Positions 4,925 through 34,166 of a stretch of 34,803 nt of DNA are shown here, piece by piece. The notes below the pieces were generated by a model that searched no databases, was not told the DNA's origin, and saw nothing but the letters and a program-made list of their open reading frames with translations. Each line of letters begins with the position of its first letter. The first letter of the stretch is position 1. Position numbers and translations under genes: made by a program. Source of the DNA: a phage; the NCBI GenBank assembly GCA_021149145.1, contig GCA_021149145.1_4322.1; one strand, written 5' to 3'.

Positions 4925-5653
4925 TTATGACTCCCAATCCGGCACAGCCCAACAACGACAGCCGTATTCCTGACCAGGGAAGAGATCGTTACCGCCCAAC
5001 CTGAAGCTTAGGCCCTCTTTCTTGAAATGGGTCATTCGCTCCCTTTCATCAAGCATGCCGTGCCAAATGTAATGGGTAACACCAGCATCCTCTAGCCTCC
5101 TGCGCATGAACGTAGAGTTAATACTGGACGTGATGCCTGAGGCTATATTAGCAGTTCTCTTGCGGTAAATCTTGTACCTTTCGTTAATCTTAAGGTAGTC
5201 ACCACTCTGTATGATTGATGCAGACTGAATAAAGTCGTCCTTGATATTGTTGAGTAACTTTTCAACGGACTTATTTGATGTGTAAAGCCACTGGTTTAAA
5301 TCCGGCTGATACCAATCTTCATCTCCATTTATACCGTTAAGTCTCAAGTCCATAACTGACTGGACCGAGCCGCCACCGGTCTTGATTGCCAGCACAAGAA
5401 ACTGCGATGAATTATACCTGTATATTGACGCTCCAATTGCCGGAAGTGTAGCTACAACAGAAGCTATAAGCGCTGCTATGATTGCGTCGAGGTAATTATC
5501 TTCCTGCTCTAGCTCCTCGGCAGTGTCAATCTTAAGCCGCGTAGCTGATTCTTTCATTGCAGATATTAGCTCAGTTACCGCAACGCTAAGGTTGCGGTTT
5601 ACCTGATTCTCAATTGTCTGCGGGTACTTCCAGCGGGTCTTCACTGGTTTCAT
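4925..5653 (-). CDS. Minor head protein (Mu F / SPP1 gp7-like)
   Basis: 242 aa; directly downstream of portal; C-terminal GCRCW cysteine motif typical of Mu F-like head morphogenesis proteins. Confidence 0.6.
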   Translation of the reverse strand: MKPVKTRWKYPQTIENQVNRNLSVAVTELISAMKESATRLKIDTAEELEQEDNYLDAIIAALIASVVATLPAIGASIYRYNSSQFLVLAIKTGGGSVQSVMDLRLNGINGDEDWYQPDLNQWLYTSNKSVEKLLNNIKDDFIQSASIIQSGDYLKINERYKIYRKRTANIASGITSSINSTFMRRRLEDAGVTHYIWHGMLDERERMTHFKKEGLSFRLGGNDLFPGQEYGCRCWAVPDWES

Positions 5654-6887
5654 TGATTGTTACCTCTGTCTCAATTGAACCTTCACCAATCTTAACCTCA
5701 GGGGCTAATGCGCGCAAGGTATCTCGTGCTTCGTCTGCATCCATCACGCCGTTAGTGATAAGAGCAGTAATTGAATCAACGTTATTCTTCAGTGTTTCAG
5801 CGCGGTCTTTCTTCGATTCCTGAGCTAGAGGGTTAAACTCAACTGACCATTCTTGCTTGGTTGTGATGAACGGGATTAAGAACCCAAGAACTGGAAGTAG
5901 CTCTTCGTTACGCTTGCGGTCAACCAACTTATGGAATGTCTCTAGCGCTGTGTTTTGGCTAGATGATAACCCGCCAACGTTACGACCTTTGAGAATGACT
6001 TCATGGATACCACTCAGAGCAACAATTCTGTCGAACTTCTTATCGAGGAATCCATCAATCCCACCAATATCCGAGTTAAGAACGCTGTACTCTTCAGCTT
6101 CAGCGTCGATACCAATCGCGCGACCAACGCCAGAGTTATCATCAACCTGGGCAAGCCTCAACCTGGCCGCACCAAAACCTTCCGCGTCGTCACACAGTTC
6201 AGCAAGGCCTTTAGCCTTCCACACCGCCTGCTGCTTGCGGCGCAATAACTGAGTTGCCAGTTTCTCACACGTCTGATAATCCCTGATTGATTCAAGCAGG
6301 TCAGGAACCAGAACGCTAGCACCCCACCCGTCATTACCGCGACGCAATGAACTAGGAATCTTCTCGCCATCCATAATGTGAATTCGCGAGTAGTGCACAT
6401 CATAAAACATGGCGCCACCTTCTGGCGTGATGCGGTACGTTAATGGCTTACCGAATCGCACATTGCGAGGGTTTTCCTCCCTAGTCTGAACTCTTACCTG
6501 GCTACGCTCATAAACGCGAAGTGATTCAAGTTCCGCACCTTCACGTACCGGGCTAGTTAGCGCACGATTGTCCTTAACGATAGCCACAATTGCAGAGCCG
6601 CCAAATAACCTCGACCATGACCATGCGTCAGAGATTGACTCGTTAACCCTCAGGTAATCCCACCTGGACCAGAATTCACCTTCGTCATCAATACCATCGA
6701 TATGGAAACCTGCAGCGATTGCTGTCTCCGGTATGGTGTCGACGATGCGGCGTACAATTGAGTTTGATGCGTACAGTGAATCAGCGAAAGGAGGTGTAAG
6801 ATACGTGTTGCCAAAGTGCCCGTAAATCTCGCTACCATCACTGGGGCCACCAAGAAATTGCGTGGCGTATGAATCTGCTTTTACCAT
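5610..6887 (-). CDS. Portal protein
   Basis: 425 aa; canonical position between large terminase and Mu F-like gene. Confidence 0.7.
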   Translation of the reverse strand: MVKADSYATQFLGGPSDGSEIYGHFGNTYLTPPFADSLYASNSIVRRIVDTIPETAIAAGFHIDGIDDEGEFWSRWDYLRVNESISDAWSWSRLFGGSAIVAIVKDNRALTSPVREGAELESLRVYERSQVRVQTREENPRNVRFGKPLTYRITPEGGAMFYDVHYSRIHIMDGEKIPSSLRRGNDGWGASVLVPDLLESIRDYQTCEKLATQLLRRKQQAVWKAKGLAELCDDAEGFGAARLRLAQVDDNSGVGRAIGIDAEAEEYSVLNSDIGGIDGFLDKKFDRIVALSGIHEVILKGRNVGGLSSSQNTALETFHKLVDRKRNEELLPVLGFLIPFITTKQEWSVEFNPLAQESKKDRAETLKNNVDSITALITNGVMDADEARDTLRALAPEVKIGEGSIETEVTINETSEDPLEVPADN

Positions 6888-6902
6888 TTTATTTGCTCCA
6901 AT

Positions 6903-6923
6903 AAAAAAGCCCCATTTAGGGGC
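6903..6923 (-). terminator. Rho-independent terminator after the 117-aa moron
   Basis: GCCCC-ATTTA-GGGGC with A6 on plus strand. Confidence 0.7.
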
Positions 6924-6946
6924 TTAGTTTAGCATAGCTTTTATGG

Positions 6947-7300
6947 TTACTCGAATTTTACTTCGAACTCGATTGATGATGTTTTCACTCCATTAAGTGT
7001 TAACTGGCGAACCTCCCTTCTGACTTCATAAAATACCTCTTTAGTTACTATGTCTTTGTTGATGAAGTATTTAATCCCAGCCTTTTCAACTTTAAAATTA
7101 TCACCTTTAACGACAAAATCGGTAGGCTCTATAACTTCGAAATCATAAACACTAAGATTAATTACGCCCAAATAGCCTTTATCATCCTTAACTTTGACGT
7201 ATTCATTATTACTTCCAGGCGTTCTTGATAAGTCATAAATCTTACCAACGGTAAAATCAAAATAACCAGCTTTTTTATACCCTTTAAATACTGCTTTCAT
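6947..7300 (-). CDS. Hypothetical protein (117 aa), moron-like insert between terminase and portal
   Basis: Lys-rich, AT-rich codons unlike neighbours; own motif-type promoter (7330-7374), GAGAGGAG RBS and own terminator (6903-6923). Confidence 0.55.
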   Translation of the reverse strand: MKAVFKGYKKAGYFDFTVGKIYDLSRTPGSNNEYVKVKDDKGYLGVINLSVYDFEVIEPTDFVVKGDNFKVEKAGIKYFINKDIVTKEVFYEVRREVRQLTLNGVKTSSIEFEVKFE

Positions 7301-7329
7301 TTTTTACTCCTCTCGTTTGCGTGAAGTAA

Positions 7330-7374
7330 CTATAAGCCACCCTTGGCGGCGCGTCTTTAGCAAAACGTGCTATT
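7330..7374 (-). promoter_or_regulatory. Motif-type promoter for the moron ORF
   Basis: Minus strand AATAGCACGTTTTGCTAAA, 22-23 nt, TTATAG/TATAGT, leader ...CGCAAACGAGAGGAG; the element's TAG is the large terminase stop codon. Confidence 0.4.
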
Positions 7375-8989
7375 TGATGCCAGCGAGGCGCATCATCCTC
7401 GATTTAGGGTCTTCTGCAATGTTCAGTACCAGGTTGACAGCCATTGTCAAACAGTCTATCTGGTCATCGTGAACATGTGAATCATCTGCCGTGAATGCCG
7501 CAATCTCCGTTAGCAAGCCATTAAGCCAAGTAGCAGACTCCGGAAGGATTACGTTACCAGCTTTAATCTGCGGCAATGCACTCATTACGCGAGTCAGCTT
7601 ATCGTTATCCGGAACGTACGGCTCGATAGGCGTTCGCATAACCCTTCCGGCTGATTGAATCAGGCCAATACCAGAGGCTTTCTTCTCGATGATGATTTTA
7701 CGAAGGATGCCATCTATCTGATTGGATGCCCTAGCCATCTTCTCGAAATCCAATAACTCAGCCTCGAGCTCAGGAGCTTCAAATTTACCGCGCCGCTGGT
7801 CAAGAAGATAAATCTTCCCATCCTTATAACCCCATAGCTGCATGACGCTAAAGTCGCTGTAACTTTTGGTTGTCATCGCAGTATCAAGGACCATAAACCT
7901 GTAATCGTACTTAGCTGGCGGTCGCAGAGTGTCGCTAATGCGTTGAAGCCAGTCTACGTTAATCAGGTTGCCGCCAAGTGCTACTGGTTCTTGCTGATAC
8001 TGGCTAAGGAATGTATAGCTATCAGAATCCCACATTGCAACCAGGTCGTGAACAGACTCCTTGCCAGGGAAATAGCTATAGTACCTAACACCATCACGCT
8101 CAATATATTCGCTTGATAGAACGTCATCAATGAATTGCTGCTTAATCCAGTCAGGAAGCGTGTCGACGTAATCCTCAGTTACGAGCGCCGGTATCTTAAT
8201 CAAGTCGAAGCTAATACCCATACCGCCATTCATCATGAACCACGTACTATCGTTCACATGAAGGCGCTGTTGGATAGAGATAATCGGCGTCGCCTTTCCT
8301 TTTACGGAGCTCGCCCTACGAGAGCGTATTGTATTCTTTAGCATCATGTGATTGTTAGCGCGAAAAACAGCAGAAAGCATGTCGGCTGGTTTGTCAAAAT
8401 CATCTAACAGTACCGCACCACTATACGAATCGGTTATATATCCACCCCTCGCGCCTGTAATTTGGCCGCCAGTGGCTTTAGAGATTGACTCAAACCTGAC
8501 CTTGCCATAGTCATCCAGGACCTGTAGCTCATCATCCTTACACGTACCAAACTTACATGGGAACAACTCCTGGAACTCAACAGACTTAATTAAGTCGCGC
8601 ACACGCTTGGAGTTACGCTTAACCAGTGAGTCAGCATACGATATATTCAGGTTCCTTACCTTTCTCAACTTAACCATTGAGTAGGCTGGGAAGTGAATTG
8701 AGGCAATCTCTGTTTTTCCGCTACCAGGTGCTATGTTGATGATGGTATCTTTACGCTCACCCGCAATAATCTCATCAATGATTCTGCAAAGGTATTTATG
8801 ATGCCAGTTTGGGATGTACCGCTCTCCCTGAGTTATCTGGAACCACACTCGCAAGAATCCCTCGAAGCTATGAGTGGATATCGCCTTAACCGCCATCTTT
8901 TCTGCTGGCGTCATTTCCTCCCAAACTAAATTAGCCATAATTTCACCAATCCAACCATCACGCCAATTAAGAATCCAGTTGTGAAGCAT
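7370..8989 (-). CDS. Terminase large subunit
   Basis: 539 aa; Walker A-like NIAPGSGKTEI near N-terminus; C-terminal nuclease-like region (RFMVLDTAMTT...); follows small subunit. Confidence 0.85.
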   Translation of the reverse strand: MLHNWILNWRDGWIGEIMANLVWEEMTPAEKMAVKAISTHSFEGFLRVWFQITQGERYIPNWHHKYLCRIIDEIIAGERKDTIINIAPGSGKTEIASIHFPAYSMVKLRKVRNLNISYADSLVKRNSKRVRDLIKSVEFQELFPCKFGTCKDDELQVLDDYGKVRFESISKATGGQITGARGGYITDSYSGAVLLDDFDKPADMLSAVFRANNHMMLKNTIRSRRASSVKGKATPIISIQQRLHVNDSTWFMMNGGMGISFDLIKIPALVTEDYVDTLPDWIKQQFIDDVLSSEYIERDGVRYYSYFPGKESVHDLVAMWDSDSYTFLSQYQQEPVALGGNLINVDWLQRISDTLRPPAKYDYRFMVLDTAMTTKSYSDFSVMQLWGYKDGKIYLLDQRRGKFEAPELEAELLDFEKMARASNQIDGILRKIIIEKKASGIGLIQSAGRVMRTPIEPYVPDNDKLTRVMSALPQIKAGNVILPESATWLNGLLTEIAAFTADDSHVHDDQIDCLTMAVNLVLNIAEDPKSRMMRLAGIK

Positions 8990-9056
8990 GTAGCTGCTAT
9001 CATGTAATACGCCAATAATGCCTTAATCAATTATATCATACCAACCCGCCATGTTC

Positions 9057-9581
9057 TTACAGTTTGCTAATCACAGACTCCAGGGCTTCCTTCATCGTTT
9101 CGACGTCGTTAGCAGAAGAGTTATTGCTTATAGTGATCTCCTGCGGTTTGTCGATTCCAAGCTCCTTGGAAATCATGCCAGGGTTAACAATGCCAGATGC
9201 TGCAAGCTGGTATTTCTGCTCGCGAATCACGGAATCAATGAATGCAATCACCTCATCATAACCAGCCGACTTCCTCCATTTCTCGATGGCGCCATGGGTG
9301 ACACCGCAGTAAAGGCAGAATCCGGTTAGCGTGAAGACTCTTGGTTTGTGCACCAGGCTCTCTTTTACCACACCCTGGAAGCTGGCTGTCTCGATTGCAT
9401 TGATTGCCTGGTCCTCAGCCCATGAGAAGTATTTCACGGCGAATTCAAATAGCTGTTCGGGTGTCATGCTTCTGTTTTTGGCTAGCGTTGTAATGTCTGA
9501 GTACTTTTTATTGTACATGGCTTTAAAGTTGCCAGAGCGGACCTTTTCTTGCGCCTGACTGGTGAAGTTTTCGTCTTTCAT
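9057..9581 (-). CDS. Terminase small subunit
   Basis: 174 aa immediately upstream of large terminase; AAAGGAGG RBS; TGATATAAT extended -10 upstream. Confidence 0.65.
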   Translation of the reverse strand: MKDENFTSQAQEKVRSGNFKAMYNKKYSDITTLAKNRSMTPEQLFEFAVKYFSWAEDQAINAIETASFQGVVKESLVHKPRVFTLTGFCLYCGVTHGAIEKWRKSAGYDEVIAFIDSVIREQKYQLAASGIVNPGMISKELGIDKPQEITISNNSSANDVETMKEALESVISKL

Positions 9582-9608: not shown

Positions 9609-9617
9609 ATTATATCA
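9609..9617 (-). promoter_or_regulatory. Extended -10 element (TGnTATAAT) upstream of terminase small subunit
   Basis: Minus-strand TGATATAAT ~25 nt upstream of the ATG, directly after a terminator hairpin. Confidence 0.4.
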
Positions 9618-9628
9618 TATAGCAAACG

Positions 9629-9651
9629 AAAAAAGCCCTCAAGAATAGGGC
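9629..9651 (-). terminator. Rho-independent terminator upstream of terminase promoter
   Basis: GCCCT-(7-nt loop)-AGGGC with A6 on plus strand. Confidence 0.55.
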
Positions 9652-11153: not shown

Positions 11154-11198
11154 ATTATATGGCATACATGCCTTTGGTGTTTAGCTATTCGTGCTGTT
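11154..11198 (-). promoter_or_regulatory. Motif-type promoter (19-bp upstream element + TATAAT)
   Basis: Minus strand ACAGCACGAATAGCTAAAC, 22 nt spacer, TATAAT, ~30 nt before the ATG at 11124. Confidence 0.45.
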
Positions 11199-12498: not shown

Positions 12499-12543
12499 AT
12501 TATGCCATCCTTGGCGTCATATCGTTAGGCAAAAAGTGCCATT
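12499..12543 (-). promoter_or_regulatory. Motif-type promoter (variant element + CATAAT)
   Basis: Minus strand AATGGCACTTTTTGCCTAA, 22 nt, CATAAT. Confidence 0.4.
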
Positions 12544-13165: not shown

Positions 13166-13286
13166 ATTCGTTACTCCTGATTGGTTGCCCTTCGTTAAGA
13201 TGAAACCATGGTATCATGAATATACGCGTTATCAAGTGTTATGTTGTGTTTATATCTGCATTGGTTACGCTTTTTGACCTCTCAGC

Positions 13287-13300
13287 CCAGCTATAGCTGG
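13287..13300. repeat. 14-bp perfect palindrome CCAGCTATAGCTGG
   Basis: Read directly; the AGCTATAGCT core recurs at 33072-33081 in the paralogous control region. Confidence 0.8.
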
Positions 13301-13440
13301 TGTAATTACCCTGTGTAAGATTTTACGCGGATTCGCCGGGGGTATGCATATGTATCTATATAGATAAAATTAGTAGTTTTCATAGAAAAACTATCGACCC
13401 ATCCATACGACCAATCTACACCATATACATACATATATAC

Positions 13441-13526
13441 AATAATAATAATAATATAGTAAAAGGTTGATATATATAGATATTATTATGTAACCATTGC
13501 GTAATCTAGCGTGGTAGGCGTATATG
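13441..13526. repeat. AT-rich control element, copy A (paralog of 33236-33320)
   Basis: (AAT)5 + identical 29-mer AGTAAAAGGTTGATATATATAGATATTAT (13458-13486) + GCGTA-type repeats at ~10-bp spacing (13499, 13509, 13518). Confidence 0.75.
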
Positions 13527-13764: not shown

Positions 13765-13809
13765 AATAGCACTTTTTGCTAAAGACATTTAGGTATTGCG
13801 GAGTTATGG
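13765..13809 (+). promoter_or_regulatory. Motif-type element (weak -10) upstream of the plus-strand island
   Basis: AATAGCACTTTTTGCTAAA followed 22 nt later by TTATGG, a poor hexamer. Confidence 0.3.
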
Positions 13810-14431: not shown

Positions 14432-14595
14432 TGCTTTTACCATCTGAGATAAACTATTTCGATCTGGAAATTATTAGTGCTTACAGCGGAAAGGGTTGGC
14501 CTTGCGGGGGCTGGTTTAACGAGGACCTGCTTGAGTCTCACGAGATTATGTTGAAGGCAATTGAGAAGGCCAGAAGAAATAGCACTAATTGCTAA
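14431..14595 (+). CDS. Hypothetical small protein (54 aa)
   Basis: Start overlaps upstream stop (TAATG); C-terminus ...RRNSTNC encoded by the promoter element. Confidence 0.4.
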   Translation: MLLPSEINYFDLEIISAYSGKGWPCGGWFNEDLLESHEIMLKAIEKARRNSTNC

Positions 14596-14622
14596 AACTC
14601 ACCGCCACGGATGGCGTATATT
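14578..14622 (+). promoter_or_regulatory. Motif-type promoter (element + TATATT)
   Basis: AATAGCACTAATTGCTAAA, 22 nt, TATATT, then conserved leader CCATCGAAACGAAAGAGAG before the ATG at 14655. Confidence 0.45.
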
Positions 14623-15205: not shown

Positions 15206-15372
15206 AATTATACATTGTAAGTGGTTGCACACACTATGATGGAAGCGAAGTGATTGCCGCTTTCGATGAAGAATTCAAAGCACAGGAGTTTAAATATAAC
15301 AAAGAAATATCTTCAGAAAATCACTTTGACTACTACAAGATAGATTGCATCTTACTAAATAGCACTAATTGA
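15202..15372 (+). CDS. Hypothetical small protein (56 aa)
   Basis: Hand-translated MKLYIVSGCTHYDGSEVIAAF...; ends ...LLNSTN via the promoter element. Confidence 0.4.
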   Translation: MKLYIVSGCTHYDGSEVIAAFDEEFKAQEFKYNKEISSENHFDYYKIDCILLNSTN

Positions 15373-15402
15373 TAATGCATTATAAGCGGCTATTGATATA
15401 AT
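15358..15402 (+). promoter_or_regulatory. Motif-type promoter (element + TATAAT) with inverted repeat bracketing the -10
   Basis: AATAGCACTAATTGATAAT, 22 nt, TATAAT; AGCGGC (15385-15390) and GCCGCT (15404-15409) flank the hexamer. Confidence 0.45.
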
Positions 15403-18781: not shown

Positions 18782-18826
18782 ATTATGCCGCATCTCTACG
18801 GCGATTGTTTAGCAATTCGTGCTATT
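18782..18826 (-). promoter_or_regulatory. Motif-type promoter (element + CATAAT)
   Basis: Minus strand AATAGCACGAATTGCTAAA, 22 nt, CATAAT, leader ...CATCGAAAACAACAGAGGG; element overlaps the kinase stop codon. Confidence 0.45.
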
Positions 18827-19363
18827 GATCACATCAATTACTATTTCTGTGGTTCTTTTAATATCACCTTCAATAACATCAATATCAATCTCCCTGGCGC
18901 AGACACCACTAAGATACGACCTACTATCTCCTTCGAAAGTGTATCCATGTCGATGAAGTCTAATTAATGTAACTTCAACACCTTCATCAATTAGTGGCTT
19001 AATCTCACTCGCGAACCCACCATCAGAACAAATGTAGCATCCATCACCAAGTGATTGCGCGAGCCTTTTACCAAAAACATCATCGCCAAAAACTGGCTTC
19101 ATCACTGATTCGCTAATCCAAATCATAAATTCACGAACAGTCATTCCACCAAGAAATTCGTGTGGTGATTCTTTGTACCCTCGGTCATCGTAATTATTAA
19201 TAAATCCATCAAACTCATCGCTTGATAGTATTCCTTTTGCAACATTAAACATTGGTGACTTGAATGAAACCTTATCCTTGCAAATTCCAAGATTAACAAT
19301 GATATCTGCAACTGTATCTTTTCCAGCACCAGGGGGTGCATTAATGATGATTAACTTTTTCAT
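18809..19363 (-). CDS. P-loop nucleotide kinase (dNMP-kinase-like)
   Basis: Track ORF 18809..19411; probable start MKKLIIINAPPGAGKDTVADIIV, which resembles the T4 gp1 dNMP kinase N-terminus as I recall it; AT-rich codons. Confidence 0.5.
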   Translation of the reverse strand: MKKLIIINAPPGAGKDTVADIIVNLGICKDKVSFKSPMFNVAKGILSSDEFDGFINNYDDRGYKESPHEFLGGMTVREFMIWISESVMKPVFGDDVFGKRLAQSLGDGCYICSDGGFASEIKPLIDEGVEVTLIRLHRHGYTFEGDSRSYLSGVCAREIDIDVIEGDIKRTTEIVIDVINSTNC

Positions 19364-19364
19364 T

Positions 19365-19827
19365 TTATTCTCTGTGAGATTCGCAGTCTTTTGGTAATTC
19401 TTTATATTCACAAACTGACATTACAGTATATCCGCAATTCCTTAGGTGACTGATAACATTAGGATTATCCTCAAAGATTATCACACTTGCTTTGTCACCA
19501 TTACACAAATCATTTAGCCACATCTCTTTAATGATATAGTCATTTCTGTTATCCAATCTACTCCTCATATATATTCCATCATAATTAATATTATTATACT
19601 GAAGCCATTCAAGCGTCATACATTCGACTTCGTCACTTCTTGAAGTCATGATGTAAACTGGCGATAACTCAGCTAACGCATTCATCATGTATTATAGGTG
19701 AATCTCCAGAACAGGCTCTATTGTAATCACCCCAACTTGAAGTCAAGTGAAGGTCACTAGATGGTAAGAGGTAGCTTCTATGTTCATTGTTAGCAATAGT
19801 TCCATCAATATCAAACACGTAAATCAT
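19365..19827 (-). pseudogene. HAD-family phosphatase split by a 1-nt frameshift
   Basis: GAGGAG RBS then ATG at 19827; MIYVFDIDGTIAN (HAD motif I) runs 52 codons to a TGA at 19669-19671; motif II-like IMTSRS and ...VIIFEDNPNV continue in another frame (19365..19688). Confidence 0.5.
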
Positions 19828-19902
19828 TACAACTCCTCATCTCGTTATCGTTTATTCATTTTGCCTCAATCCTTTGAGGCTTTATTAACAAAAAAGTGCT
19901 AC

Positions 19903-21036
19903 TTAGAACATCTCAGGGCGACAAATAAATCGACCAACCTCACCAAAACGCTTATGGTAAACGATTACCGCTGCTTGACGCATTGAGCGCCATCCTCCAT
20001 TAGCTGAGTAGGCATCTGGCGCGCCAAGCTGACCATGAACTTCATCGATACCCAGGTTTGTTTCTGTAATTTTCTGACTATGCCAGTGGCCCGAGTGTGT
20101 ATAGACATATTTGCTGTTACCGAATAGTTTACGAAAGTCTGTAGCCATTACTGTAAGTCGAGTTTCAGCTTTTCGCATCTGGTGACCATGAGTATAACCA
20201 ATCAATGTTGAGCCGAAGCTTGTCATCAGCATTGCTGCTGGGCTTACGTCGACAGTAACTCGCTCCTCGTCTTCATAGAATGCCGCCAATGCTGCACGCA
20301 ACCAAACCATCCCAGCTTCGTCGTGATTTCCACTTATTACTTTAATATCAATGATTTGGTGCTTCTCAAGCATCCTTGAAACCGCACGACGCACTGAGCG
20401 GATTGCTACGTAAACCAATTTAGCATAGCGACTGTCGCTGTCTAAGATATGTCCTGATGCTGGTGTTTTAGCCTCTAGAGAGTCGTAATGCAGAAAATCA
20501 CCCCCCAAAACTAATGTCGCATTTCTTGATTTAGGAGCCTTATCTACAGCATAATCAAAGAAGCCATTCATTACCTTCTCTGCTGTTGCAGTGTCGTAGT
20601 TTTCACCGCACTCATGCTTATGAGCCATTGCGCCAATGTGAAGGTCGAAAACAGGATACATAGCCATAGTGTCATCGTCAAAATCAATGTCTGGGCACTC
20701 GCTGGCAATTGCCTTTGGTAAATCAGAACAGAAGGCTTCACGCGCTTGCTCAAGCAGAATCTCAAGGCGTTCATTATCAACGCTTGTCTTAACCCACCGG
20801 ATTTTCTCATTCCCTTCCGCATCAATCATGGTAGAAGTGCCTTTTACCATGTATCCATCTGGCACTAGCTTCTTGATACCTTCATTACCATGCCCAACAC
20901 CACTCTTGGCTAACTTGCTGCGACGAAGCTCAACGTTGCGAATGTTCATGCCGTACTTCTCTGCAATTGCCTTGTTAGTCAGGCCATTCTTCAATTCTTC
21001 AGTTAACTGTTCATTTGTAATCTTTGCTACTGCCAT
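19903..21036 (-). CDS. Metallophosphoesterase (calcineurin-like) with N-terminal HTH-like region
   Basis: GDFLHYD, GNHDE and HGH motifs typical of calcineurin-like phosphoesterases; N-terminal LTNKAIAEKYGMNIRNVELRR resembles an HTH. Confidence 0.65.
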   Translation of the reverse strand: MAVAKITNEQLTEELKNGLTNKAIAEKYGMNIRNVELRRSKLAKSGVGHGNEGIKKLVPDGYMVKGTSTMIDAEGNEKIRWVKTSVDNERLEILLEQAREAFCSDLPKAIASECPDIDFDDDTMAMYPVFDLHIGAMAHKHECGENYDTATAEKVMNGFFDYAVDKAPKSRNATLVLGGDFLHYDSLEAKTPASGHILDSDSRYAKLVYVAIRSVRRAVSRMLEKHQIIDIKVISGNHDEAGMVWLRAALAAFYEDEERVTVDVSPAAMLMTSFGSTLIGYTHGHQMRKAETRLTVMATDFRKLFGNSKYVYTHSGHWHSQKITETNLGIDEVHGQLGAPDAYSANGGWRSMRQAAVIVYHKRFGEVGRFICRPEMF

Positions 21037-21117: not shown

Positions 21118-21369
21118 TCATACAACCTCTTTCAGCCAGTAATCAATTAAATCAGCACTAATTGCTAATTTTTGGTCCAGGTCTGTCATGCACAGATTAC
21201 CGCACGCTGGAGAGTAGTAAATCTGTACCCATTTACCGTCCTTCGTCTTCGCGTTAACATCCACATAGTCAGGTGGAAACCAGTCATCAATAGGTATCGC
21301 TCTAAACTTCTTCCCACTATCACTATGCACTAAATTATAATGCTCAGGCTGAAAATCTAATCCCAACAT
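21118..21369 (-). CDS. Hypothetical protein (83 aa)
   Basis: ORF; last of a chain of six coupled small genes. Confidence 0.45.
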   Translation of the reverse strand: MLGLDFQPEHYNLVHSDSGKKFRAIPIDDWFPPDYVDVNAKTKDGKWVQIYYSPACGNLCMTDLDQKLAISADLIDYWLKEVV

Positions 21370-22362: not shown

Positions 22363-22407
22363 ATAATACACCAACTCACCAGTTCGTCTTTGGAAATTCG
22401 TGCTATT
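22363..22407 (-). promoter_or_regulatory. Motif-type promoter (element + TATTAT)
   Basis: Minus strand AATAGCACGAATTTCCAAA, 22 nt, TATTAT, leader ...CTCATCGAAACGAAACACAC; the element's TAG is the VRR-NUC stop codon. Confidence 0.45.
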
Positions 22408-24533: not shown

Positions 24534-25514
24534 CTTGTGCCGACCTCGTTGTTATTGATACTGAGTAAAGCTCTCTCTTTTTCTTGCCGCCAATATAGCT
24601 TCTAACCTTAACTCCGTCATTAGCAATAAATGCTATTAGCGCATCAACTACTGATTGAACTTCACTCCTGCTAAATGATTCGGTGTGGATTTCTACAACC
24701 CTCTTCCCTGAGCTTACAGTGCAATGACCATCATCACCAAAGTAAGCAGCCCAACCAACTGGATCAAGCTCTCTGCATATCTTTCCAATATCGTAACCAT
24801 CCTTAGAATTTCCGTACTTATCAGCATATGAATCCAGAACTTTCGTACATGATGTTGATACGCAAAACCAGTTGTCGCCAAATCCAGGGTTTTTCTTCTC
24901 CCTGTATCTAGGGTTTAGTTTTGCAAACCTTTCAACCTTGCTTAGTGCGTGCTCCTTATTTCCAATATTCCAAGATAGCCTATGCGTTCCTTTTTCTGTA
25001 TTTTTAATCAAGCAACCATCACCAGCCATTGCCGCAAGAATGTTTTGATGTAAAAAGTCATCAACCTCCATTGATGGGTTGACGGTTGAATTATGATGCC
25101 CCGTTCTGTAATCCAAATAGAAATCGAAAGGGTTCTTAAGAAGTACGCCTAACCCCTTGCTTGAATGCGGCATAACTTTTTCACCACAGCCACACTTGCA
25201 CGCAGGAGCTTTTTCGTAAATTTGTCCTGCGAGCCGTCTAGCGACAGATTCATCCCAATACGAAGTTTTCCCGCTCCTACCCAGCAGCCGTTCGAATAAA
25301 GTTTGTGTGTACTCGTGCATTTTATTTCCTCTCCGCTTTCTAATTTAATTGATGATACATGTCTTACACCATTAGTAAAAACTCTTTTTGGCTTATGATA
25401 GAAGTAATCACCAGTGCTTTCGTTTATGCATTTTATTTTATGATTGATAAGGTCTTCGCTATCAATCCTCATCATCCCTGAATCGGTGGTTATCATCGTG
25501 TCTCCAGTTAAGCA
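24375..25514 (-). mobile_element. Intein (1140 nt, 380 codons) in helicase motif II, with LAGLIDADG endonuclease encoded in a shifted frame
   Basis: Block A CLTGDTMITT directly after ...VIAIDE; block B KCTSTHKLY; blocks F/G VWDIEMPEHHNFIADGVVAHN then C; joined exteins read DE-CH. The two splicing domains share one frame; the endonuclease ORF is in another. Confidence 0.75.
24466..25320 (-). CDS. LAGLIDADG homing endonuclease (intein-internal or free-standing)
   Basis: 284-codon ORF with its own ATG, two LAGLIDADG-like motifs (ILAAMAGDGCL, AAYFGDDGHC); overlaps the flanking ORFs by 172 and 68 nt. Confidence 0.65.
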   Translation of the reverse strand: MHEYTQTLFERLLGRSGKTSYWDESVARRLAGQIYEKAPACKCGCGEKVMPHSSKGLGVLLKNPFDFYLDYRTGHHNSTVNPSMEVDDFLHQNILAAMAGDGCLIKNTEKGTHRLSWNIGNKEHALSKVERFAKLNPRYREKKNPGFGDNWFCVSTSCTKVLDSYADKYGNSKDGYDIGKICRELDPVGWAAYFGDDGHCTVSSGKRVVEIHTESFSRSEVQSVVDALIAFIANDGVKVRSYIGGKKKRELYSVSITTRSAQDEFFKRISKHMENGVEYKIKQN

Positions 25515-25999: not shown

Positions 26000-26043
26000 A
26001 TAATAACAGCCATAGAACCCATTGTTTAACAAAAAGTGCTATT
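26000..26043 (-). promoter_or_regulatory. Motif-type promoter (variant element + TATTAT) upstream of helicase
   Basis: Minus strand AATAGCACTTTTTGTTAAA, 21 nt, TATTAT, ~40 nt before the helicase ATG at 25958; divergent from the HTH gene. Confidence 0.4.
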
Positions 26044-26579: not shown

Positions 26580-27059
26580 ATGAACTGGCATGATTATTTT
26601 TACTATGTAGATGGCAAATTGCATTGGAAGATTAGCACTGCAAGACGTGTTAAGGTTGGCGATGAGTGCAACTCACTATCTACATCTGGCTATTACAAAG
26701 TGTCTGTTAATGGCTTTAGGACTTATGTACATAGAGTTGTGTGGGAGATGTTTAATGGATAACTTCAAAATGGCGACTACATTGATCATATAAACCATAA
26801 CAAATTAGATAACAGAATAGAAAACCTAAGAGTAACAACAAATCAAGGTAACTCAAGAAATTGCAAGCTTAGCGTTTTATCAACAACTGGTTATTGTGGA
26901 GTGGCAAAGCTAAATCACGGAAAATTTAAGGCTCACATCACGGTTGACGGCAAGCAGCTACACCTTGGTAACTTCGATACTCCAGAACGGGCGTATAAAG
27001 TAAGAATTGAAGCAGAGAGAAAATACAACTTTCACGAAAATAACGGGTTAAGCAAATGA
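26580..27059 (+). pseudogene. HNH-AP2-type homing endonuclease interrupted by an in-frame TAA (26760-26762)
   Basis: GGAGAGAAG RBS; MNWHDYFYYVDGKLHWK...HRVVWEMFNG, TAA, then same frame LQNGDYIDHINHNKLDNRIENLRVTTNQGNSRN (HNH) and an AP2-like tail; stop overlaps primase ATG (ATGA). Confidence 0.6.
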
Positions 27060-27979
27060 ATTACGATAAGAATGAAGTTATACCTAAGATGGCCGGATTG
27101 TGGAAATCATTTTATGTAAAGGAACTTGGTTGGAATGATAGACACATAAGTAAGAAGCACGGACCATGCCCATGCTGCTTTGGCACTGACAGATTCAGAT
27201 TTACCGACGAAATAGGCAGTGAAAAAGGAAATGGCGCGGCAGTTTGTTCGAAATGCGGAAGTGACTCCGGTATAGGATGGGTCATGAAGTGCACCGGATT
27301 GTCCTTCGCCGATTCAGTAAATTTGCTTGGTGACTGGCTGAACTTAACACCAATTGAGGTTATAGTTAAAGCAAACAAGCAAGCCTCGAGAACTAAGCGT
27401 TACAAAATGGGCGCTCAAGTCGACCATGAGAAAGTCCTGGAGGTTATGGAGAGAACTAAGAGAGTGGAATCGAGTCCACTCACGACATACGAGGGTATTT
27501 ATGACGCGTTTGGTTTTGATGTTGGTATAGCTAAAAATGGTTCAATGATTCACGCAATCCCTTGTTCGATGGTTTATGAAGATGGGCTTAGTGATGAGTT
27601 CTGTAACGTAATGTTTATCGATGAGGATTCAAATGTTAAGTTCCTTGCTGGTGATTACACTCGTGATTCTGTTTCCGTTATTGGTTCTAAGCAGGATGAT
27701 AGTTATACTTATGTTGTTGACAATTATATTGATGGCATGCGTGTTCACCTTGCTACTGGTGGGCGCGAAGTGTTTGTTGCTTTCTCCTGTTACAATATGG
27801 AGATGGTTATCCACCGCGACAAGTCAAGGAAGTTCAGAATTGCTTGCCGTGATTCTGATAGCGATATACTCGCCGTTGCTGACGATAGGGGTGTTGATGT
27901 TGTAGTTCCTAATGACGGTGAGTCATTTAAAACAGGCATACGAAAGAAAGTGTACAAAGCAAACGACTTGCTAAACTAG
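27056..27979 (+). CDS. DNA primase (zinc ribbon plus TOPRIM-like region)
   Basis: 307 aa; N-terminal Cys4 ribbon GPCPCCFGTDRFRF...AVCSKCG typical of primase zinc-binding domains; acidic DxD-like clusters later (CRDSDSDILAVADDRG). Confidence 0.55.
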   Translation: MNYDKNEVIPKMAGLWKSFYVKELGWNDRHISKKHGPCPCCFGTDRFRFTDEIGSEKGNGAAVCSKCGSDSGIGWVMKCTGLSFADSVNLLGDWLNLTPIEVIVKANKQASRTKRYKMGAQVDHEKVLEVMERTKRVESSPLTTYEGIYDAFGFDVGIAKNGSMIHAIPCSMVYEDGLSDEFCNVMFIDEDSNVKFLAGDYTRDSVSVIGSKQDDSYTYVVDNYIDGMRVHLATGGREVFVAFSCYNMEMVIHRDKSRKFRIACRDSDSDILAVADDRGVDVVVPNDGESFKTGIRKKVYKANDLLN

Positions 27980-28000: not shown

Positions 28001-28064
28001 TTGCCTGAAAGATGGTAGAATGAATTTTGGCAATTAGTGCTACTTTACAAATGGAGACTTTACA

Positions 28065-30518
28065 ATGGCAATTTATGACTTAGGAACAGCATCGCTAGCC
28101 TCAAATGGCGAGGTTACTGGCGTAGGTACTACATGGAAAGCACCTCTTACACTGATTCGTGTAGGTGCTACTATCATTTTCAAAACCAGCCCTCTGAAAA
28201 TTTACACCATCTCTGAAATCATCAGCGATACTCAGGTTAATGTTTATAATCCAAGTTCTGAAACTGTTCCCGCTGGTACTGGTTACGCAATTCTTGCTCA
28301 TGATGGAATTACTGTTCAGGGGTTGGCGCAGGATGTTGCGGAAACATTGCGTTACTACCAGTCAAAAGAGACTTCTATTGAAAGTCTACTGCAATTTATT
28401 GGTCAAGATACTTTTGATTGGCCTCGTCTTGAACAACTGGCAACTCAGTCAACTACCGGAGCTGCCGAGGCGCTTGCTAGTCAGATCTCTGCCGCTGAGA
28501 GTGCCTCTACAGCGGTAGGTGCTAGCAATAACGCACAAAATTCATATAACAGGACGGTTGCAGCAATAAATGCGGCTGGAAATACAGCGGCTGTTGCTTA
28601 CTTTGCTGATCACGGAATAGGTAGCACGACAACGCCATTTCTTACCTCTTTAGATTGGCAAACAATGCAATTTTGTTCCGGAGGTCGTTATCAGTGCACA
28701 CTTAGGGATATGTTAAACACCCCAAAAGAAATTAGTTCAATGTTTCCGGTTTCAACAACTCCTATTTGTATTGATGTTATTGCAACTAGGGGTGTTAATT
28801 CGGCTAGTGTATTAAGGTTATCTCCGTCTACTGGGTCAAACTCAAATTTTAGGATTGCAGATGTCACAATTTCTGGTGCGACTGGATCTAGGGTTTTTTA
28901 TGTAAGGGAAGCACTAAGCTTGCCTGGCGGTGATGCTGCAACTGGTGGAGCAAGCGCGTCAAGGGTTAGGGGGTTGCTTGATGTTTACTCAAAGGGTGAG
29001 GTGTTATCAATTTTAAATACAGATTCAAAAAAAAGCACATCAAGCTATGGCGGCTCAATATCTTCAGCAATAGAAACCGCTGGCGATGGCGGGTCGGTAG
29101 TTATAGGCCCGGGAACTTATGAGAGTAATAACTACTCCTTTGCTGGCAGGAACATATCAGGCTCTGGATATAATACCGTAATAAGTGTTAAACCTTTTGA
29201 AACCGGACTCACATCAACGCTATCGGTTCCGCACTGGAGGCAAAAGCATTTATCGGATTTGCAGTTTACAGGTACTGCAATACAAGGTAATAACGGCTTT
29301 CAATTCCCGGATGACCCTTATGCTGGAAGGGTTGTATTGGATAGGCTTTACTTCAATGACCTGGATGTTGGTATAAGGAAAAATGCTGGCAACATTGGAA
29401 ATACCTACAGAAACGTAAGTGTTAGAAATGCGAATTACGGGTATAGAGCAAAAGCTCATGACAAAATGCATATAGGATCGGACACTTTATACGGATACCA
29501 CTCAGATACAATCTCTCAATATTCAGTAATGCTAGATGCGACAAGCACAAGTAGCGCAACGAACCATGGCGCTGGAGGAATTGGTGGGTGGTGGATTAGG
29601 GATTCAATAATGGAGGACTCTGCTGGCGGCGGTATAAGGTTAAAGAATAAACCTGGAGATTGCCCAACATCACCTTGCGGATTGTCTAACGTATGGTTTG
29701 AAGCGATAGCAACTGGGGGAGCAGTTAACGTAGGTGAGGGAGCTGAACTCCCAAGGGTTTTGAAGCTCATCGATACGTCCGTTTTCTTTGCTGAGCATTC
29801 TTATATTAATAACATTGAGTTATCAAATTCAAACCTTGTAACTTATGGGTGCAGGTTTGATAACGCTGATGGGCGCCAAAGTTTCTCTCTTGATTCGAAC
29901 AGTATTATTTTTGCTAAGGATGCATACCTGAATGGATCTTCAACATCAAACGTTATAGTTGAGTCGCTGGTATCACAGACAGCCAAGATAACGGGTACAT
30001 CTGACTTATCTGTTAGAGGATATGTTACTAAAGGTCGAGTTTTTAATCCAGATTCCGGAACTGTTTTAGTCAGGAGGCCTTTTGGTACTGGTGGGAGCAA
30101 CTTTGGTGGAACAGCGTCGGCAAGTGAAGGTCCTGATACAAGGGGTATACACTCGCTATCATCTGGATACTACGAATTGCTTGGTGCGGCTCAGTACGAA
30201 TTGATAAATGGTGCCTTTAATATAACCGCTGGCAAATGGTATGTTTGGGGTATCTCTGCAAACAGAATTCAAGGTGGTGCTGATGGTGTTATCCGTATTT
30301 TTGGTAGAGCATCTTTAGGGCAGGTATTCACTGAGGGCGGTAAGTGGGTTCACACATTTGGAGTTGCTCAGGCTTCAGTCTCTGGCACTGCAAACCTGCA
30401 TATCAACCTTAATGGGCTACCTGGTATGGCATTAAGTCTTGCTGATTACTTCGTTGTAGAGTTCGATAACCAAAGAGACGCTTTAATATTTGCCAACTCA
30501 AGGATGGCGCTTCAATAA
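28065..30518 (+). CDS. Tailspike / tail fibre protein with probable beta-helix (depolymerase-like) domain
   Basis: 817 aa, GGAGA RBS; Gly/Ser/Thr/Asn-rich repetitive central region of the kind seen in right-handed beta-helix tailspikes; flanked by terminators. Confidence 0.55.
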   Translation: MAIYDLGTASLASNGEVTGVGTTWKAPLTLIRVGATIIFKTSPLKIYTISEIISDTQVNVYNPSSETVPAGTGYAILAHDGITVQGLAQDVAETLRYYQSKETSIESLLQFIGQDTFDWPRLEQLATQSTTGAAEALASQISAAESASTAVGASNNAQNSYNRTVAAINAAGNTAAVAYFADHGIGSTTTPFLTSLDWQTMQFCSGGRYQCTLRDMLNTPKEISSMFPVSTTPICIDVIATRGVNSASVLRLSPSTGSNSNFRIADVTISGATGSRVFYVREALSLPGGDAATGGASASRVRGLLDVYSKGEVLSILNTDSKKSTSSYGGSISSAIETAGDGGSVVIGPGTYESNNYSFAGRNISGSGYNTVISVKPFETGLTSTLSVPHWRQKHLSDLQFTGTAIQGNNGFQFPDDPYAGRVVLDRLYFNDLDVGIRKNAGNIGNTYRNVSVRNANYGYRAKAHDKMHIGSDTLYGYHSDTISQYSVMLDATSTSSATNHGAGGIGGWWIRDSIMEDSAGGGIRLKNKPGDCPTSPCGLSNVWFEAIATGGAVNVGEGAELPRVLKLIDTSVFFAEHSYINNIELSNSNLVTYGCRFDNADGRQSFSLDSNSIIFAKDAYLNGSSTSNVIVESLVSQTAKITGTSDLSVRGYVTKGRVFNPDSGTVLVRRPFGTGGSNFGGTASASEGPDTRGIHSLSSGYYELLGAAQYELINGAFNITAGKWYVWGISANRIQGGADGVIRIFGRASLGQVFTEGGKWVHTFGVAQASVSGTANLHINLNGLPGMALSLADYFVVEFDNQRDALIFANSRMALQ

Positions 30519-30548: not shown

Positions 30549-30977
<429 letters not shown>

Positions 30978-31698: not shown

Positions 31699-31743
31699 AT
31701 GATACCCCACCTGTTAATTTTGTCTTTAGCAATTAGTGCTATT
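31699..31743 (-). promoter_or_regulatory. Motif-type promoter (element + TATCAT)
   Basis: Minus strand AATAGCACTAATTGCTAAA, 22 nt, TATCAT, leader ...CCCATCGAAACGAAAGAGAG; the element's TAG is the exonuclease stop codon. Confidence 0.45.
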
Positions 31744-32908: not shown

Positions 32909-33071
32909 TTCTCTATCTCTCTATTGTTGCGTGCTTTCGATTAGTTAATGATGCCGTACGCACAACGCATAGTCCAATTGGTATCACCTATTAATTAATC
33001 AAGTATACGCGTATAATTTTGTAACTACGTGTAGACATTGGCATGAGTTACGTTTTTAGCCACTTAAGCCA

Positions 33072-33081
33072 AGCTATAGCT
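33072..33081. repeat. Palindrome AGCTATAGCT (paralog of 13287-13300)
   Basis: Read directly. Confidence 0.7.
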
Positions 33082-33235
33082 CAATGTAAATAGTGAGTAT
33101 ACCGTGTATACCGATTTTAGCGGAGGGTGCATAGGTATAGGTGCTGCGCAATACTGTATAAAATCACATGGTATAAAAATTATAAGCGGAACACTCAAGA
33201 ACAGTAGTTACATGATATACAAGATATACATATAT

Positions 33236-33320
33236 AATAATAATAATAAGAGTAAAAGGTTGATATATATAGATATTATAATGTAACTATGGCGTAAACT
33301 GGCGTAACTGGGCGTATACG
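33236..33320. repeat. AT-rich control element, copy B, with three GGCGTA repeats at exact 10-bp spacing
   Basis: (AAT)4-5 + identical 29-mer (33251-33279) + GGCGTAAACT / GGCGTAACTG / GGCGTATACG at 33291, 33301, 33311. Confidence 0.75.
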
Positions 33321-33373: not shown

Positions 33374-33417
33374 AATAGCACGAATAGCTAAAACTAATAC
33401 GCAAAACCCTGTATAGT
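33374..33417 (+). promoter_or_regulatory. Motif-type promoter (element + TATAGT)
   Basis: AATAGCACGAATAGCTAAA, 21 nt, TATAGT, leader ...AAACGAGAGAGG before the ATG at 33450. Confidence 0.45.
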
Positions 33418-33449: not shown

Positions 33450-34139
33450 ATGGTTATTTGGTCTTTATTTGATGGTTCAGGGCTGGCTGTGAAAGATTGG
33501 GCTGAGGCTTGTCACGAGTGCTACTGTTTCAACTTTGATGAGTCTGACCACGGTAGTTACGGGGATTTAAATGCAAAATTTGAACATGAGAACATCACCT
33601 ACGTTAATGCCTGGATAGATGGCAACTTCGACTTTGATGTGAAGCCTGATATCATTTTAGCGTTCCCGCCGTGTACGGATTTAGCCGTGAGCGGGTCAAG
33701 GCACTTTGAGCGAAAGCGACTGGTTAACCATAACTTCCAGATTGAAGCTGCGGAAACATGTAAAGTTGCTTTTAACTTGGCTAATAAGTACGAAGTCCCA
33801 TACATGATTGAGAATCCAATCAGCGTACTGTCATCACTCTGGAGAAAGCCTAATAAGACTTTCCACCCATATGAATACGGAGGCTATTTGCCGGAAGATG
33901 ATTTACACCCGTTTTTTAGCGACCTAATAAAGCCAAAAGACGCATATCCCAAGAAGACATGCATTTGGTATGGCAATGGGTTTAAATGGCCAGAGGCGAT
34001 TCCTGTGGACGTTAACGATGGATTCTCTGACCAATACAAGAAGCTTGGTGGGAAGAGTAAGAAGACAAAGGTAATTCGCAGTCTAACTCCTCGCGGTTTT
34101 GCAAAAGCAGTCTTCATAGCAAATAGCACGAATAGATAA
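33450..34139 (+). CDS. SAM-dependent DNA methyltransferase-like protein (about 229 aa; specificity uncertain)
   Basis: Track ORF 33417 (TTG); better ATG at 33450 with GAGAGAGG RBS; FDGSG (FxGxG-like), FPPC and ENP segments; size matches the small T1 Dam class as I recall it; ends ...ANSTNR via the promoter element. Confidence 0.5.
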   Translation: MVIWSLFDGSGLAVKDWAEACHECYCFNFDESDHGSYGDLNAKFEHENITYVNAWIDGNFDFDVKPDIILAFPPCTDLAVSGSRHFERKRLVNHNFQIEAAETCKVAFNLANKYEVPYMIENPISVLSSLWRKPNKTFHPYEYGGYLPEDDLHPFFSDLIKPKDAYPKKTCIWYGNGFKWPEAIPVDVNDGFSDQYKKLGGKSKKTKVIRSLTPRGFAKAVFIANSTNR

Positions 34140-34166
34140 AGACAAATCCCAAGGATGAGATATCAT
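34122..34166 (+). promoter_or_regulatory. Motif-type promoter (element + TATCAT)
   Basis: AATAGCACGAATAGATAAA, 22 nt, TATCAT, leader ...CCATTGAAACGAAACACAC, AAGGAA RBS, ATG at 34208. Confidence 0.45.

Follow-up and report, generated by a model that had tools for sequence, protein, structure and literature searches.

A stretch of 34,803 nucleotides (nt) of DNA (hereafter the window) from a T1-like coliphage of the Drexlerviridae, subfamily Braunvirinae, was analyzed with emphasis on ORF117, an open reading frame (ORF) of 117 codons that lies between the genes for the terminase large subunit (TerL) and the portal protein. ORF117 is, more likely than not, a dispensable and horizontally exchanged accessory cassette that occupies an insertion hot spot at the TerL-portal junction; it would be regulated by a direct repeat and may act within the cell. 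The cassette would extend from the TerL stop codon to a terminator that is resident at the junction, and is composed of a T1-type direct repeat with a -10-like box, a leader, a strong ribosome binding site (RBS) and the ORF. An earlier reading of the window (the original prediction) had described ORF117 as a self-contained moron with a promoter and terminator of its own. The accessory nature, deviant composition and exchangeability of the gene, and its association with a regulatory unit, were upheld by our analysis, ownership of the terminator was not, and the promoter is a plausible reading of a known repeat. Thus, ORF117 is a moron in the structural sense and is not fully self-contained, because its terminator is a resident of the junction. 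Based on its distribution, the gene appears to be an old, polymorphic resident of two phage subfamilies and not a recent private acquisition.

Occupancy and exchange at the TerL-portal junction

Comparison of the TerL-portal junction in related phages, which had been set beforehand as a test, revealed three states: occupied, occupied with an added HNH homing endonuclease gene, and empty. The region of the window at 5600-9000 was ~95% identical to Escherichia phages ES and AN_ECEAS, 88% identical to IMM-001 and ~81% identical to TR2-like Christensenviruses. Occupied junctions were detected in ES, AN_ECEAS, IMM-001 (where the homologue is unannotated and has a GTG start), Rtp (rtp22), CEB_EC3a, PCEc3, ACG-M12, phiEB49 (gp57), Sd1, Jk06 (JK_35) and IME253, as well as on metagenomic contigs with the homologues P0003, P0010 and P0011. 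The layout of the occupied junction is TerL, a spacer of 69-72 nt, the ORF, a second spacer (56-59 nt at most measured loci) and portal. In RobRod40 and AugustePiccard (Bas01) the junction is occupied and, in addition, carries an HNH gene between TerL and the repeat motif (L004 3087-3563 and L013 2019-2414, respectively, both upstream of the repeat unit). Another HNH gene, in phage ES (L014 875-1351), is located between the terminase small subunit gene (TerS) and TerL and is preceded by a repeat at 803; the window has no HNH gene at either its TerL-portal or its TerS-TerL junction.

Empty junctions, with a TerL-portal gap of 48-49 nt, were found in TR1, TR2, TR3, CY1, Rao1, DTL, JeanPiccard (Bas02), BEK6 and the vv12210I isolates (Veterinaerplatzvirus; 44,219 bp), and T1 has a gap of 54 nt without an ORF117 homologue. 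The gene is not universal among relatives, as shown by its absence from TR2, DTL, JeanPiccard, vv12210I and T1. Both states occur within the genus Veterinaerplatzvirus, in which T145P1 has the gene and vv12210I does not, and the same slot with the same flanks is common to the Braunvirinae and Rogunavirinae.

The base composition of ORF117 sets it apart from its neighbors, as originally proposed for a Lys-rich ORF of 117 residues. Lysine accounts for 16 residues (13.7%) compared to 4.2-9.9% in TerL, portal, the MuF-like protein, the protease and TerS, and the calculated pI is 8.6. The GC content of the gene is 0.328 compared to 0.46-0.49 in the neighboring genes, with a GC content at third codon positions (GC3) of 0.297 compared to 0.43-0.58, and is the minimum among the 41 ORFs of at least 100 amino acids in the window (mean 0.447, standard deviation 0.035). 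When relatives were checked, the homologues were likewise deviant (GC 0.33-0.44 versus 0.45-0.51 in their flanks). Low GC is thus a trait of the family, with the lowest-GC allele found in the window, ES, phiEB49 and ACG-M12. The strong RBS was also borne out: AGGAG is located six bases before the ATG in the context GAGAGGAG, which is kept at most homologous loci. Each element listed in the original prediction (ORF, RBS, motif and terminator) was present; the orientation, which had been left unstated, is minus strand. Two more low-GC ORFs of the window, 19365-19688(-) with a GC of 0.336 and 18809-19363(-) with a GC of 0.377, adjoin repeat copies at 19885-19903 and 18808-18826 and may be further foreign accessory genes.

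Exchange of the gene between otherwise similar phages was evident from comparison of the window to IMM-001. TerL and portal of these two phages are 96% and 94% identical in amino acid sequence, compared to 34% for ORF117, and nucleotide identity is 83% in the 5' spacer and 93% over the last codons and 3' spacer. The 5' unit, the last ~10 codons and the 3' spacer were found to be conserved at the nucleotide level, and the gene body was not. Two classes of allele were distinguished (MKAVFKGYKK... and ...SKAVYLGN..GFTVG...), both ending in IKFEVKFE, together with long-linker variants and at least one inter-class recombinant (P0009, see below). The reading frame remains intact even though the alleles share only 31-58% amino acid identity. 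The ratio of nonsynonymous to synonymous substitution rates (dN/dS) was 0.35-0.58 for ORF117 and 0.03-0.09 for TerL and portal, a 5- to 10-fold difference. In the same phage pairs the synonymous rate (dS) was 0.4-0.5 for ORF117 and 1.6-1.8 for TerL; the history of ORF117 is therefore decoupled from that of its left neighbor. This evolutionary pattern is that of a genuine coding gene under selection that undergoes replacement as a cassette. The replacement probably proceeds by homologous recombination, for which the conserved ends would serve as homology arms. The homologues of phiEB49 (L010 2501-2890) and ACG-M12 (L011 2501-2890) have a frameshift in an A-run, with the remainder, including ...SSIKFEVKFE*, intact in another frame; these frameshifts were not accepted as gene decay, since a homopolymer sequencing error is as likely as a recent inactivation.

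One homologue was found outside any TerL-portal junction. P0009 (122 amino acids) is 40% identical to ORF117, has the same end motifs, and is encoded on contigs from two sequencing runs with flanks that match the Vequintavirinae (rV5/FFH2-like myoviruses of ~137 kb). The gene is situated within a run of small ORFs adjoining the DNA polymerase gene. Upstream of it is a perfect TTGACA-N17-TATAAT promoter, and downstream is a T1-type repeat unit (ACAGCACTTTTTGCTAAAG...TATATTTACTTCACACAAACAAGAGGAG), which extends into the initial codons (ATGAAAGCA) of the gene that comes next (85 amino acids). When the 541-nt P0009 segment was used as a blastn query, only Drexlerviridae were matched (71-85% identity), and the matches were confined to the repeat unit and the C-terminal half of P0009. 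No gene of the ORF117 family was found in published Vequintavirinae genomes. P0009 is an apparent T1-like cassette moved between phage families, with some chance left for a chimeric assembly. At face value, the gene would be portable, and a function bound to the capsid or portal of T1-type phages becomes less likely.

The junctions of the packaging genes are hot spots for insertion, and how the TerL-portal junction came to be occupied was considered by comparing the two states at the nucleotide level. Empty sites read ...GGAATTAAATAGC joined directly to CGTGATAAACTAGCCCCTACATGGGGCTTTTTTATTGGAG...ATG, and at occupied sites the same GATAAACTA, hairpin, T-run and RBS follow the ORF. The joint of the empty sites falls between AAATAGC and AAAAGC(TA)TGATAAACTA, i.e., AAATAGC followed by CGTGATAAACTA when empty compared to AAATAGC...AAAAGC followed by TATGATAAACTA when occupied. 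This microhomology fits a precise deletion and a precise insertion alike. Of the claim that ORF117 was independently acquired, the part that stands is an accessory insert in a tight junction (48-54 nt when empty); ancestral presence in the Braunvirinae and Rogunavirinae with repeated loss or swap would fit equally well.

Direct-repeat unit and terminator

ORF117 is preceded by a copy of the direct repeat of T1-like phages, which reads AATAGCACGTTTTGCTAAA and forms the start of the upstream spacer. This repeat (AATAGCACGTTTTGCTAAAG) is positioned 74 nt before the ATG on the same strand and agrees with T1-like repeats in consensus, orientation and distance. In phage TLS, a 21-nt direct repeat of consensus aaATAGCACnnnTTGnTAAAA is found ~76 bases upstream of start codons, and the repeat occurs in T1, Rtp and Rogue1 as well (PMC11447400). 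The repeats of the window resemble those of TLS and other T1-like phages in consensus, in orientation with transcription, in the distance of ~76 nt and in the A/T/G subtypes of the spacer. The TAG within the repeat (7370-7372) is the stop codon of TerL, as had been predicted.

By a scan of the window, 15 copies of the repeat were detected at three or fewer mismatches compared to 0.55 expected by chance, all co-oriented with the gene downstream. The distance from repeat to start codon was 73-104 nt in the 12 copies with a detected downstream ORF, and 73-86 nt in 11 of these 12. A -10-like box (TAnnnT) was found 39-41 nt after the start of the repeat in 11 of the 15 copies, with CATAAT at approximately the same distance in two more, and is followed in these units by a CA-rich leader (…CATCGAAACGAAAGAGAG…). 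The fixed position of the -10-like box at +39-41 nt extends what has been described for the TLS repeats, as does the association of the unit with replication and recombination genes and, within the structural module, with inserted accessory genes. The genes behind the repeats encode two helicases, a helicase fragment, an Erf-like annealing protein, a Dam DNA methyltransferase and several small ORFs. The copy before ORF117 is the window's sole repeat within the packaging/head module. The structural module of the complete ES genome has three copies, located ahead of an HNH endonuclease gene, the ORF117 homologue and an ORF of 82 amino acids; these look like inserted accessory genes.

The repeat was found to be conserved upstream of all 12 ORF117 homologues aligned, and the upstream repeat unit stays beside the ORF when an HNH gene is inserted. 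At empty sites the upstream unit is absent except for AAATAG(C), which overlaps the end of TerL. By this comparison, the upstream repeat unit belongs to ORF117.

The spacing of 22-23 nt between TTGCTA and the -10-like box is unlike that of a sigma-70 -35/-10 pair, and TTGCTA-N22/23-TATAGT was rejected as a sigma-70 promoter since this spacing is too wide. Instead, an inverted repeat, TAGCA-N5-TGCTA, is centered near -42 of the transcription start that the -10 box would specify, a geometry suggestive of an activator-dependent promoter; the direct-repeat unit would then function as an activator-type promoter with a -10 box and no usable -35. The claim that ORF117 has a motif-type promoter of its own held for the motif and for the TerL stop codon within it, and the promoter role is suggested by the repeat and TATAGT in place of a canonical sigma-70 site. 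Independent expression would follow from the regulatory unit that accompanies the gene. If the repeat unit is a promoter, ORF117 would be co-regulated with DNA-metabolism genes and not with its structural neighbors. ORF117 would be transcribed together with these early/middle genes, because the same repeat unit precedes helicase, Erf, Dam and small early genes, and additionally by read-through from TerS-TerL, with the transcript ending at the resident terminator.

Between the repeat and the -10-like box, the spacer upstream of ORF117 contains a GC-rich hairpin. It was identified by a terminator-like scan (6 pairs and a weak T tail), appears in the minimum-free-energy fold of the 69-nt spacer, and in relatives is retained as a stem of GCCA-NGGA-TGGC type despite base changes. 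The hairpin was rejected as a terminator for TerL since it is weak and has no T-run. A short GC-rich hairpin, often GCCA-NGGA-TGGC, is found just before the -10-like box in many of the repeat units, and further spacer hairpins were noted at ~14600-14617(+), 12505-12520(-), 18785-18805(-), 19860-19882(-) and 11160-11178(-). These spacer hairpins could represent DNA or RNA structure or a second protein-binding site.

Several other observations were made on the repeats. The copies at 21151-21169(+) and 28026-28044(-) have neither a -10-like box nor a co-oriented downstream ORF, and the latter is back-to-back with a hairpin/T-run terminator between the primase gene (27056-27979) and the gene for a tail fibre of 817 amino acids (28065-30518). 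An AT-rich segment of ~260 nt with TATA/ATAATAATAA runs occurs twice (13246-13512 and 33029-33305) in direct orientation, with the copies 19.8 kb apart, 72-91% identical, and each upstream of a repeat motif (13765 and 33374). This duplicated segment could be a regulatory or origin-like region.

Downstream of ORF117, a good intrinsic terminator was detected as predicted, in which AAGCCCCTAAATGGGGCTT is followed by TTTTTT (6907-6925) and the T-run reaches ~6897. The 7-bp hairpin appears in the folded RNA, and the portal RBS follows the terminator directly. The same hairpin, T-run and portal RBS were found directly after TerL at the empty junctions of TR2, DTL, JeanPiccard and vv12210I, and an analogous terminator is annotated in the TerL-portal gap of T1. 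Since the same terminator is present at empty sites, it is a resident TerL-portal element and does not belong to the gene, and the claim of an own terminator was not sustained. When an 80-nt probe that spans the last codons of ORF117 and the terminator was compared to phage records by blastn, 98 records were matched. Of these, 38 were covered over at least 80% of the probe, and thus include the 3' end of ORF117, and the remaining ~60 matched mainly the terminator part alone (43 of them near-identical isolates).

Protein family, predicted fold and other features of the window

ORF117 was found to be a member of the rtp22/phrog_14592 family (E = 4.1e-28; residues 1-117 of 117 aligned to profile positions 2-116 of 116), and by tblastn it matched 36 phage records, all with at least 80% query coverage. 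Members of this family (rtp22, JK_35 and phiEB49 gp57) have in common the slot, the leader of 69-72 nt and the ends MKAVFKGY... and ...IKFEVKFE. By contrast to other named members, to which it is 31-58% identical, the allele of the window, ES and AN_ECEAS is among the most AT-rich. The family is small, with 12 clusters when grouped at 90% identity, and a profile search of 1.84 billion representatives yielded 31 clusters at 50% identity. Two weak profile matches (a galectin-repeat protein of 995 amino acids and a protein of 388 amino acids) were judged spurious or uninformative; apart from these two repeat-domain matches, the clusters found by profile search were all small phage proteins. Searches of Pfam, NCBIfam and PADLOC gave no match, and a profile search of Protein Data Bank (PDB) sequences gave only noise at E > 0.1. 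No significant match to a known defence or counter-defence family was detected in PADLOC (which covers defence systems and not anti-defence proteins), Pfam, NCBIfam or PDB sequences. The suggested homology search thus yielded membership of phrog_14592 and no functional homologue.

The structure prediction that had also been suggested gave a confident fold. In an AlphaFold (AF2) model from a 13-sequence alignment, the predicted local distance difference test (pLDDT) score was 82 over the full length, and the C-terminal domain reached 95.7 when modelled alone. The model has an SH3-like barrel, a disordered linker that is hypervariable, and a small beta-beta-alpha-beta domain, and its N-terminal part conforms to the SH3-like small beta-barrel fold, being a five-stranded barrel that superimposes on SH3 domains. 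Positions invariant in the family map to the first strand (MKAVFKGY), FTxGK, DD, YDFE, IN and the last strand (I-FE-KF). As judged from sequence, the N-terminus of ORF117 lacks any hydrophobic stretch indicative of a signal peptide or membrane segment. From the model, we infer that the barrel of ORF117 is a binding module and that the small domain attached to it is of an often self-pairing kind; there is no catalytic signature. Among the closest systems are SH3-like phage proteins that are small and non-essential, for example Gp54 of Bas11 (PDB 9AXB; PMC11578894).

The positions of the features are given in Table 1. All genes of the packaging and head region are minus-strand genes, in the order TerS, TerL, ORF117, portal, MuF-like protein and protease. 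The mechanical TerL ORF (539 amino acids) begins 17-20 codons before the alignment with the TerL proteins of relatives (~520-523 amino acids), at 8936-8989(-), and the true start is probably an internal Met near MANLVWEEM. Upstream of TerS, at 9614-9651(-), a terminator-like hairpin (GCCCTATTCTTGAGGGC and a T-run) overlaps a sigma-70-like promoter, TTGAGG-17-TATGAT, and this overlap may be the start of the packaging/head transcription unit. Elsewhere in the window, the ORF at 30549-30977(-) encodes a protein of 142 amino acids with a poly-glutamine tract; the run of TGC/TGT triplets at 30565-30656 (plus strand) within it corresponds to CAG/CAA codons on the coding strand.

Table 1. Positions of ORF117, its flanking genes and the associated sequence elements; window coordinates unless residues or another contig are named.
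Feature	Position	Strand	Description
TerS	9057-9581	-	First of the packaging/head genes in order
TerL, terminase large subunit, upstream flank	7370-8989	-	Pfam Terminase_6C; phrog_38, E = 2e-107
T1-like 21-nt direct repeat	7356-7374	-	AATAGCAC-N3-TTGCTAAA; zero mismatches to window consensus
GC-rich hairpin	7336-7350	-	GCCGCCAAGGGTGGC; spacer between repeat and -10-like box
-10-like hexamer	7329-7334	-	TATAGT; downstream of the repeat before ORF117
Shine-Dalgarno	7307-7311	-	AGGAG; read in the sequence
ORF117	6947-7300	-	117 amino acids, ATG start, soluble protein of 13.5 kDa; from ORF listing
Intrinsic terminator	6897-6925	-	AAGCCCC-TAAAT-GGGGCTT and T6; terminator scan and RNA fold
Portal protein, downstream flank	5610-6887	-	Pfam Phage_portal_3, E = 6e-66; phrog_146
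Five-stranded SH3-like barrel	Residues 1-57		AlphaFold model of ORF117
Disordered hypervariable linker	Residues 60-72		AlphaFold model of ORF117
Beta-beta-alpha-beta domain	Residues 76-117		AlphaFold model of ORF117
Repeat copies, first eight	7356-7374(-), 11180-11198(-), 12525-12543(-), 13765-13783(+), 14578-14596(+), 15358-15376(+), 18808-18826(-), 21151-21169(+)
Repeat copies, other seven	22389-22407(-), 24619-24637(-), 26025-26043(-), 28026-28044(-), 31725-31743(-), 33374-33392(+), 34122-34140(+)
P0009 locus	L019 3940-4465		Logan contig ERR10744916_873; also on L020

Alternative explanations and implications

A number of findings weigh against ORF117 as an exchanged accessory cassette with its own regulation. 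The family is labelled 'virion structural protein' in PHROG and RefSeq. A simple scan detected no canonical sigma-70 promoter upstream of ORF117, and the authors of the TLS study left the role of the repeat between a stoperator, an enhancer-binding site and a UP-like element (PMC11447400). The terminator, by its presence at empty sites, is part of the junction and not of ORF117, which counts against a self-contained unit; empty sites also keep the AAATAGC start of the repeat. The gene is old in two subfamilies, and its absences may all be deletions. A role in counter-defence or host takeover, finally, is suggested by analogy and evolutionary pattern.

The label leads to the best surviving alternative, which we nevertheless consider unlikely, that ORF117 is a useful but non-essential virion or assembly protein that binds portal, terminase or capsid during or after packaging. 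In line with this, phrog_14592 is placed in the category 'head and packaging', RefSeq names rtp22, JK_35 and others as structural, and AN_ECEAS is annotated with a 'putative minor outer capsid protein'. The gene occupies the TerL-portal slot with a fixed spacer of 69-72 nt in every Drexlerviridae genome examined that has it, and the invariant N- and C-terminal strands could dock on a conserved partner. A positional analogue exists in phage lambda, in which the gene for gpW separates gene A (terminase large subunit) from gene B (portal). By contrast, no experimental source for the label was found in studies of the JK06-like phages, Rogue1, MSK, SH6, SU57 and KanT1. Virion proteomics of four JK06-like phages identified seven proteins, including portal (ORF04) and a 13.5-kDa protein of ORF12/13, and none from the ORF117 slot. 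A protein of the family was likewise unreported in the Rogue1, MSK and SH6 studies (SH6, like T1, is without the gene). Furthermore, relatives with 82-92% identical TerL and portal assemble without the gene, the head modules already have a separate cement/decoration gene (PF22758), the upstream unit is that of replication and recombination genes, and P0009 is located among early-type small ORFs by a myovirus DNA polymerase gene, behind a consensus sigma-70 promoter. The structural label may reflect gene position.

Quite improbable, in our estimate, is the explanation that ORF117 is a vertically inherited late gene of the packaging operon, expressed solely from TerS-TerL read-through and lost by deletion from a few lineages, with the repeat being no promoter and the low GC that of a protein rich in Lys, Asn, Ile and Tyr under weak constraint. 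The same position and flanks in two subfamilies would be expected on this account, empty sites resemble microhomology deletions, and the two promoter-related findings given above (no canonical site by scan, and a repeat function left open in the literature) are in its favor. Set against it is the low GC3 of ORF117 (0.297 compared to 0.43-0.58); since GC3 is also low, the bias is not due only to amino acid composition. The radically different allele of IMM-001 between flanks of 94-96% identity, the dS of ORF117 several-fold below that of TerL in the same phage pairs, and the transfer of the gene to a Vequintavirinae-like genome are similarly at odds with vertical inheritance. The repeat, moreover, is at a fixed distance to the -10-like box and mostly to the start codon, and stays with the ORF beside HNH insertions.

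Less probable still is that the repeat/-10 element re-initiates or boosts portal and head transcription across a leaky terminator, with ORF117 a passenger or translated leader: the terminator and the portal RBS (TTTTTTATTGGAG...ATG) are too close together to accommodate a promoter, portal expression must therefore depend on read-through, and the late region of T1 is described as 'transcriptons' bounded by terminators (earlier work as told in PMC11447400), but empty-site phages express portal without the repeat unit, ORF117 is intact, foldable and under a dN/dS below 1 across very divergent alleles, and P0009 is kept where no portal gene follows.

The accessory cassette is thus preferred, and its resemblance to a moron can be specified. 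The moron concept of the lambdoid phages is that of Juhala and Hendrix. ORF117 is like a lambdoid moron in being an extra, AT-rich gene between genes that are adjacent in relatives, with a regulatory unit before it and an intrinsic terminator after it, and in being dispensable and horizontally exchanged. Unlike the lambdoid morons, it is found in a virulent phage without prophage-stage expression or lysogenic conversion, its terminator is common to the ancestral junction, the gene is long established in two subfamilies, and the upstream element is a phage-specific repeat with a putative promoter role instead of a sigma-70 promoter.

For the product of this cassette, a tentative proposal, which we hold at somewhat less than an even chance, is a small binding protein of the cytoplasm that takes part in counter-defence or the takeover of the host and is not a part of the virion. 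The proposal is made because of the putative regulation in common with early/middle genes, the dispensability, the elevated dN/dS, the exchange as a cassette and the apparent transfer of the gene to a block of early genes in a different phage family. In such a protein, recognition of a partner from host or phage would fall to the variable SH3-like barrel, and self-association to the invariant C-terminal domain, which is half-ferredoxin-like. A bolder version, about which we are rather doubtful, is that the TerL-portal junction of Braunvirinae and Rogunavirinae is a recombination hot spot with a hypervariable counter-defence or host-takeover cassette that is switched on early by a direct-repeat promoter, and that the repeat and gene together are portable between unrelated phage families, as the rV5-like contig suggests. 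Here, a fast-evolving SH3-like domain for recognition would be combined with constant end strands and a constant C-terminal domain for oligomerization, and the gene would be switched on early despite its position inside a late packaging operon.

By itself, ORF117 is one more small phage gene, already present and unremarked in published T1-like genomes, and both the gene and the repeat motif are already in databases and the literature. What the comparison adds is a natural experiment: near-isogenic phages with, without or with a divergent cassette are available in collections (Bas01 and Bas03 versus Bas02, the Veterinaerplatzvirus isolates, and IMM-001 versus ES), which would allow an inexpensive search for a phenotype such as sensitivity to defence systems. 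The cassette also provides a handle on the 21-nt repeat, which in the packaging/head part of the window and ES precedes only inserted accessory genes, and the fixed distance between repeat and -10-like box makes the hypothesis of a promoter or activator site in the T1-like phages directly testable.

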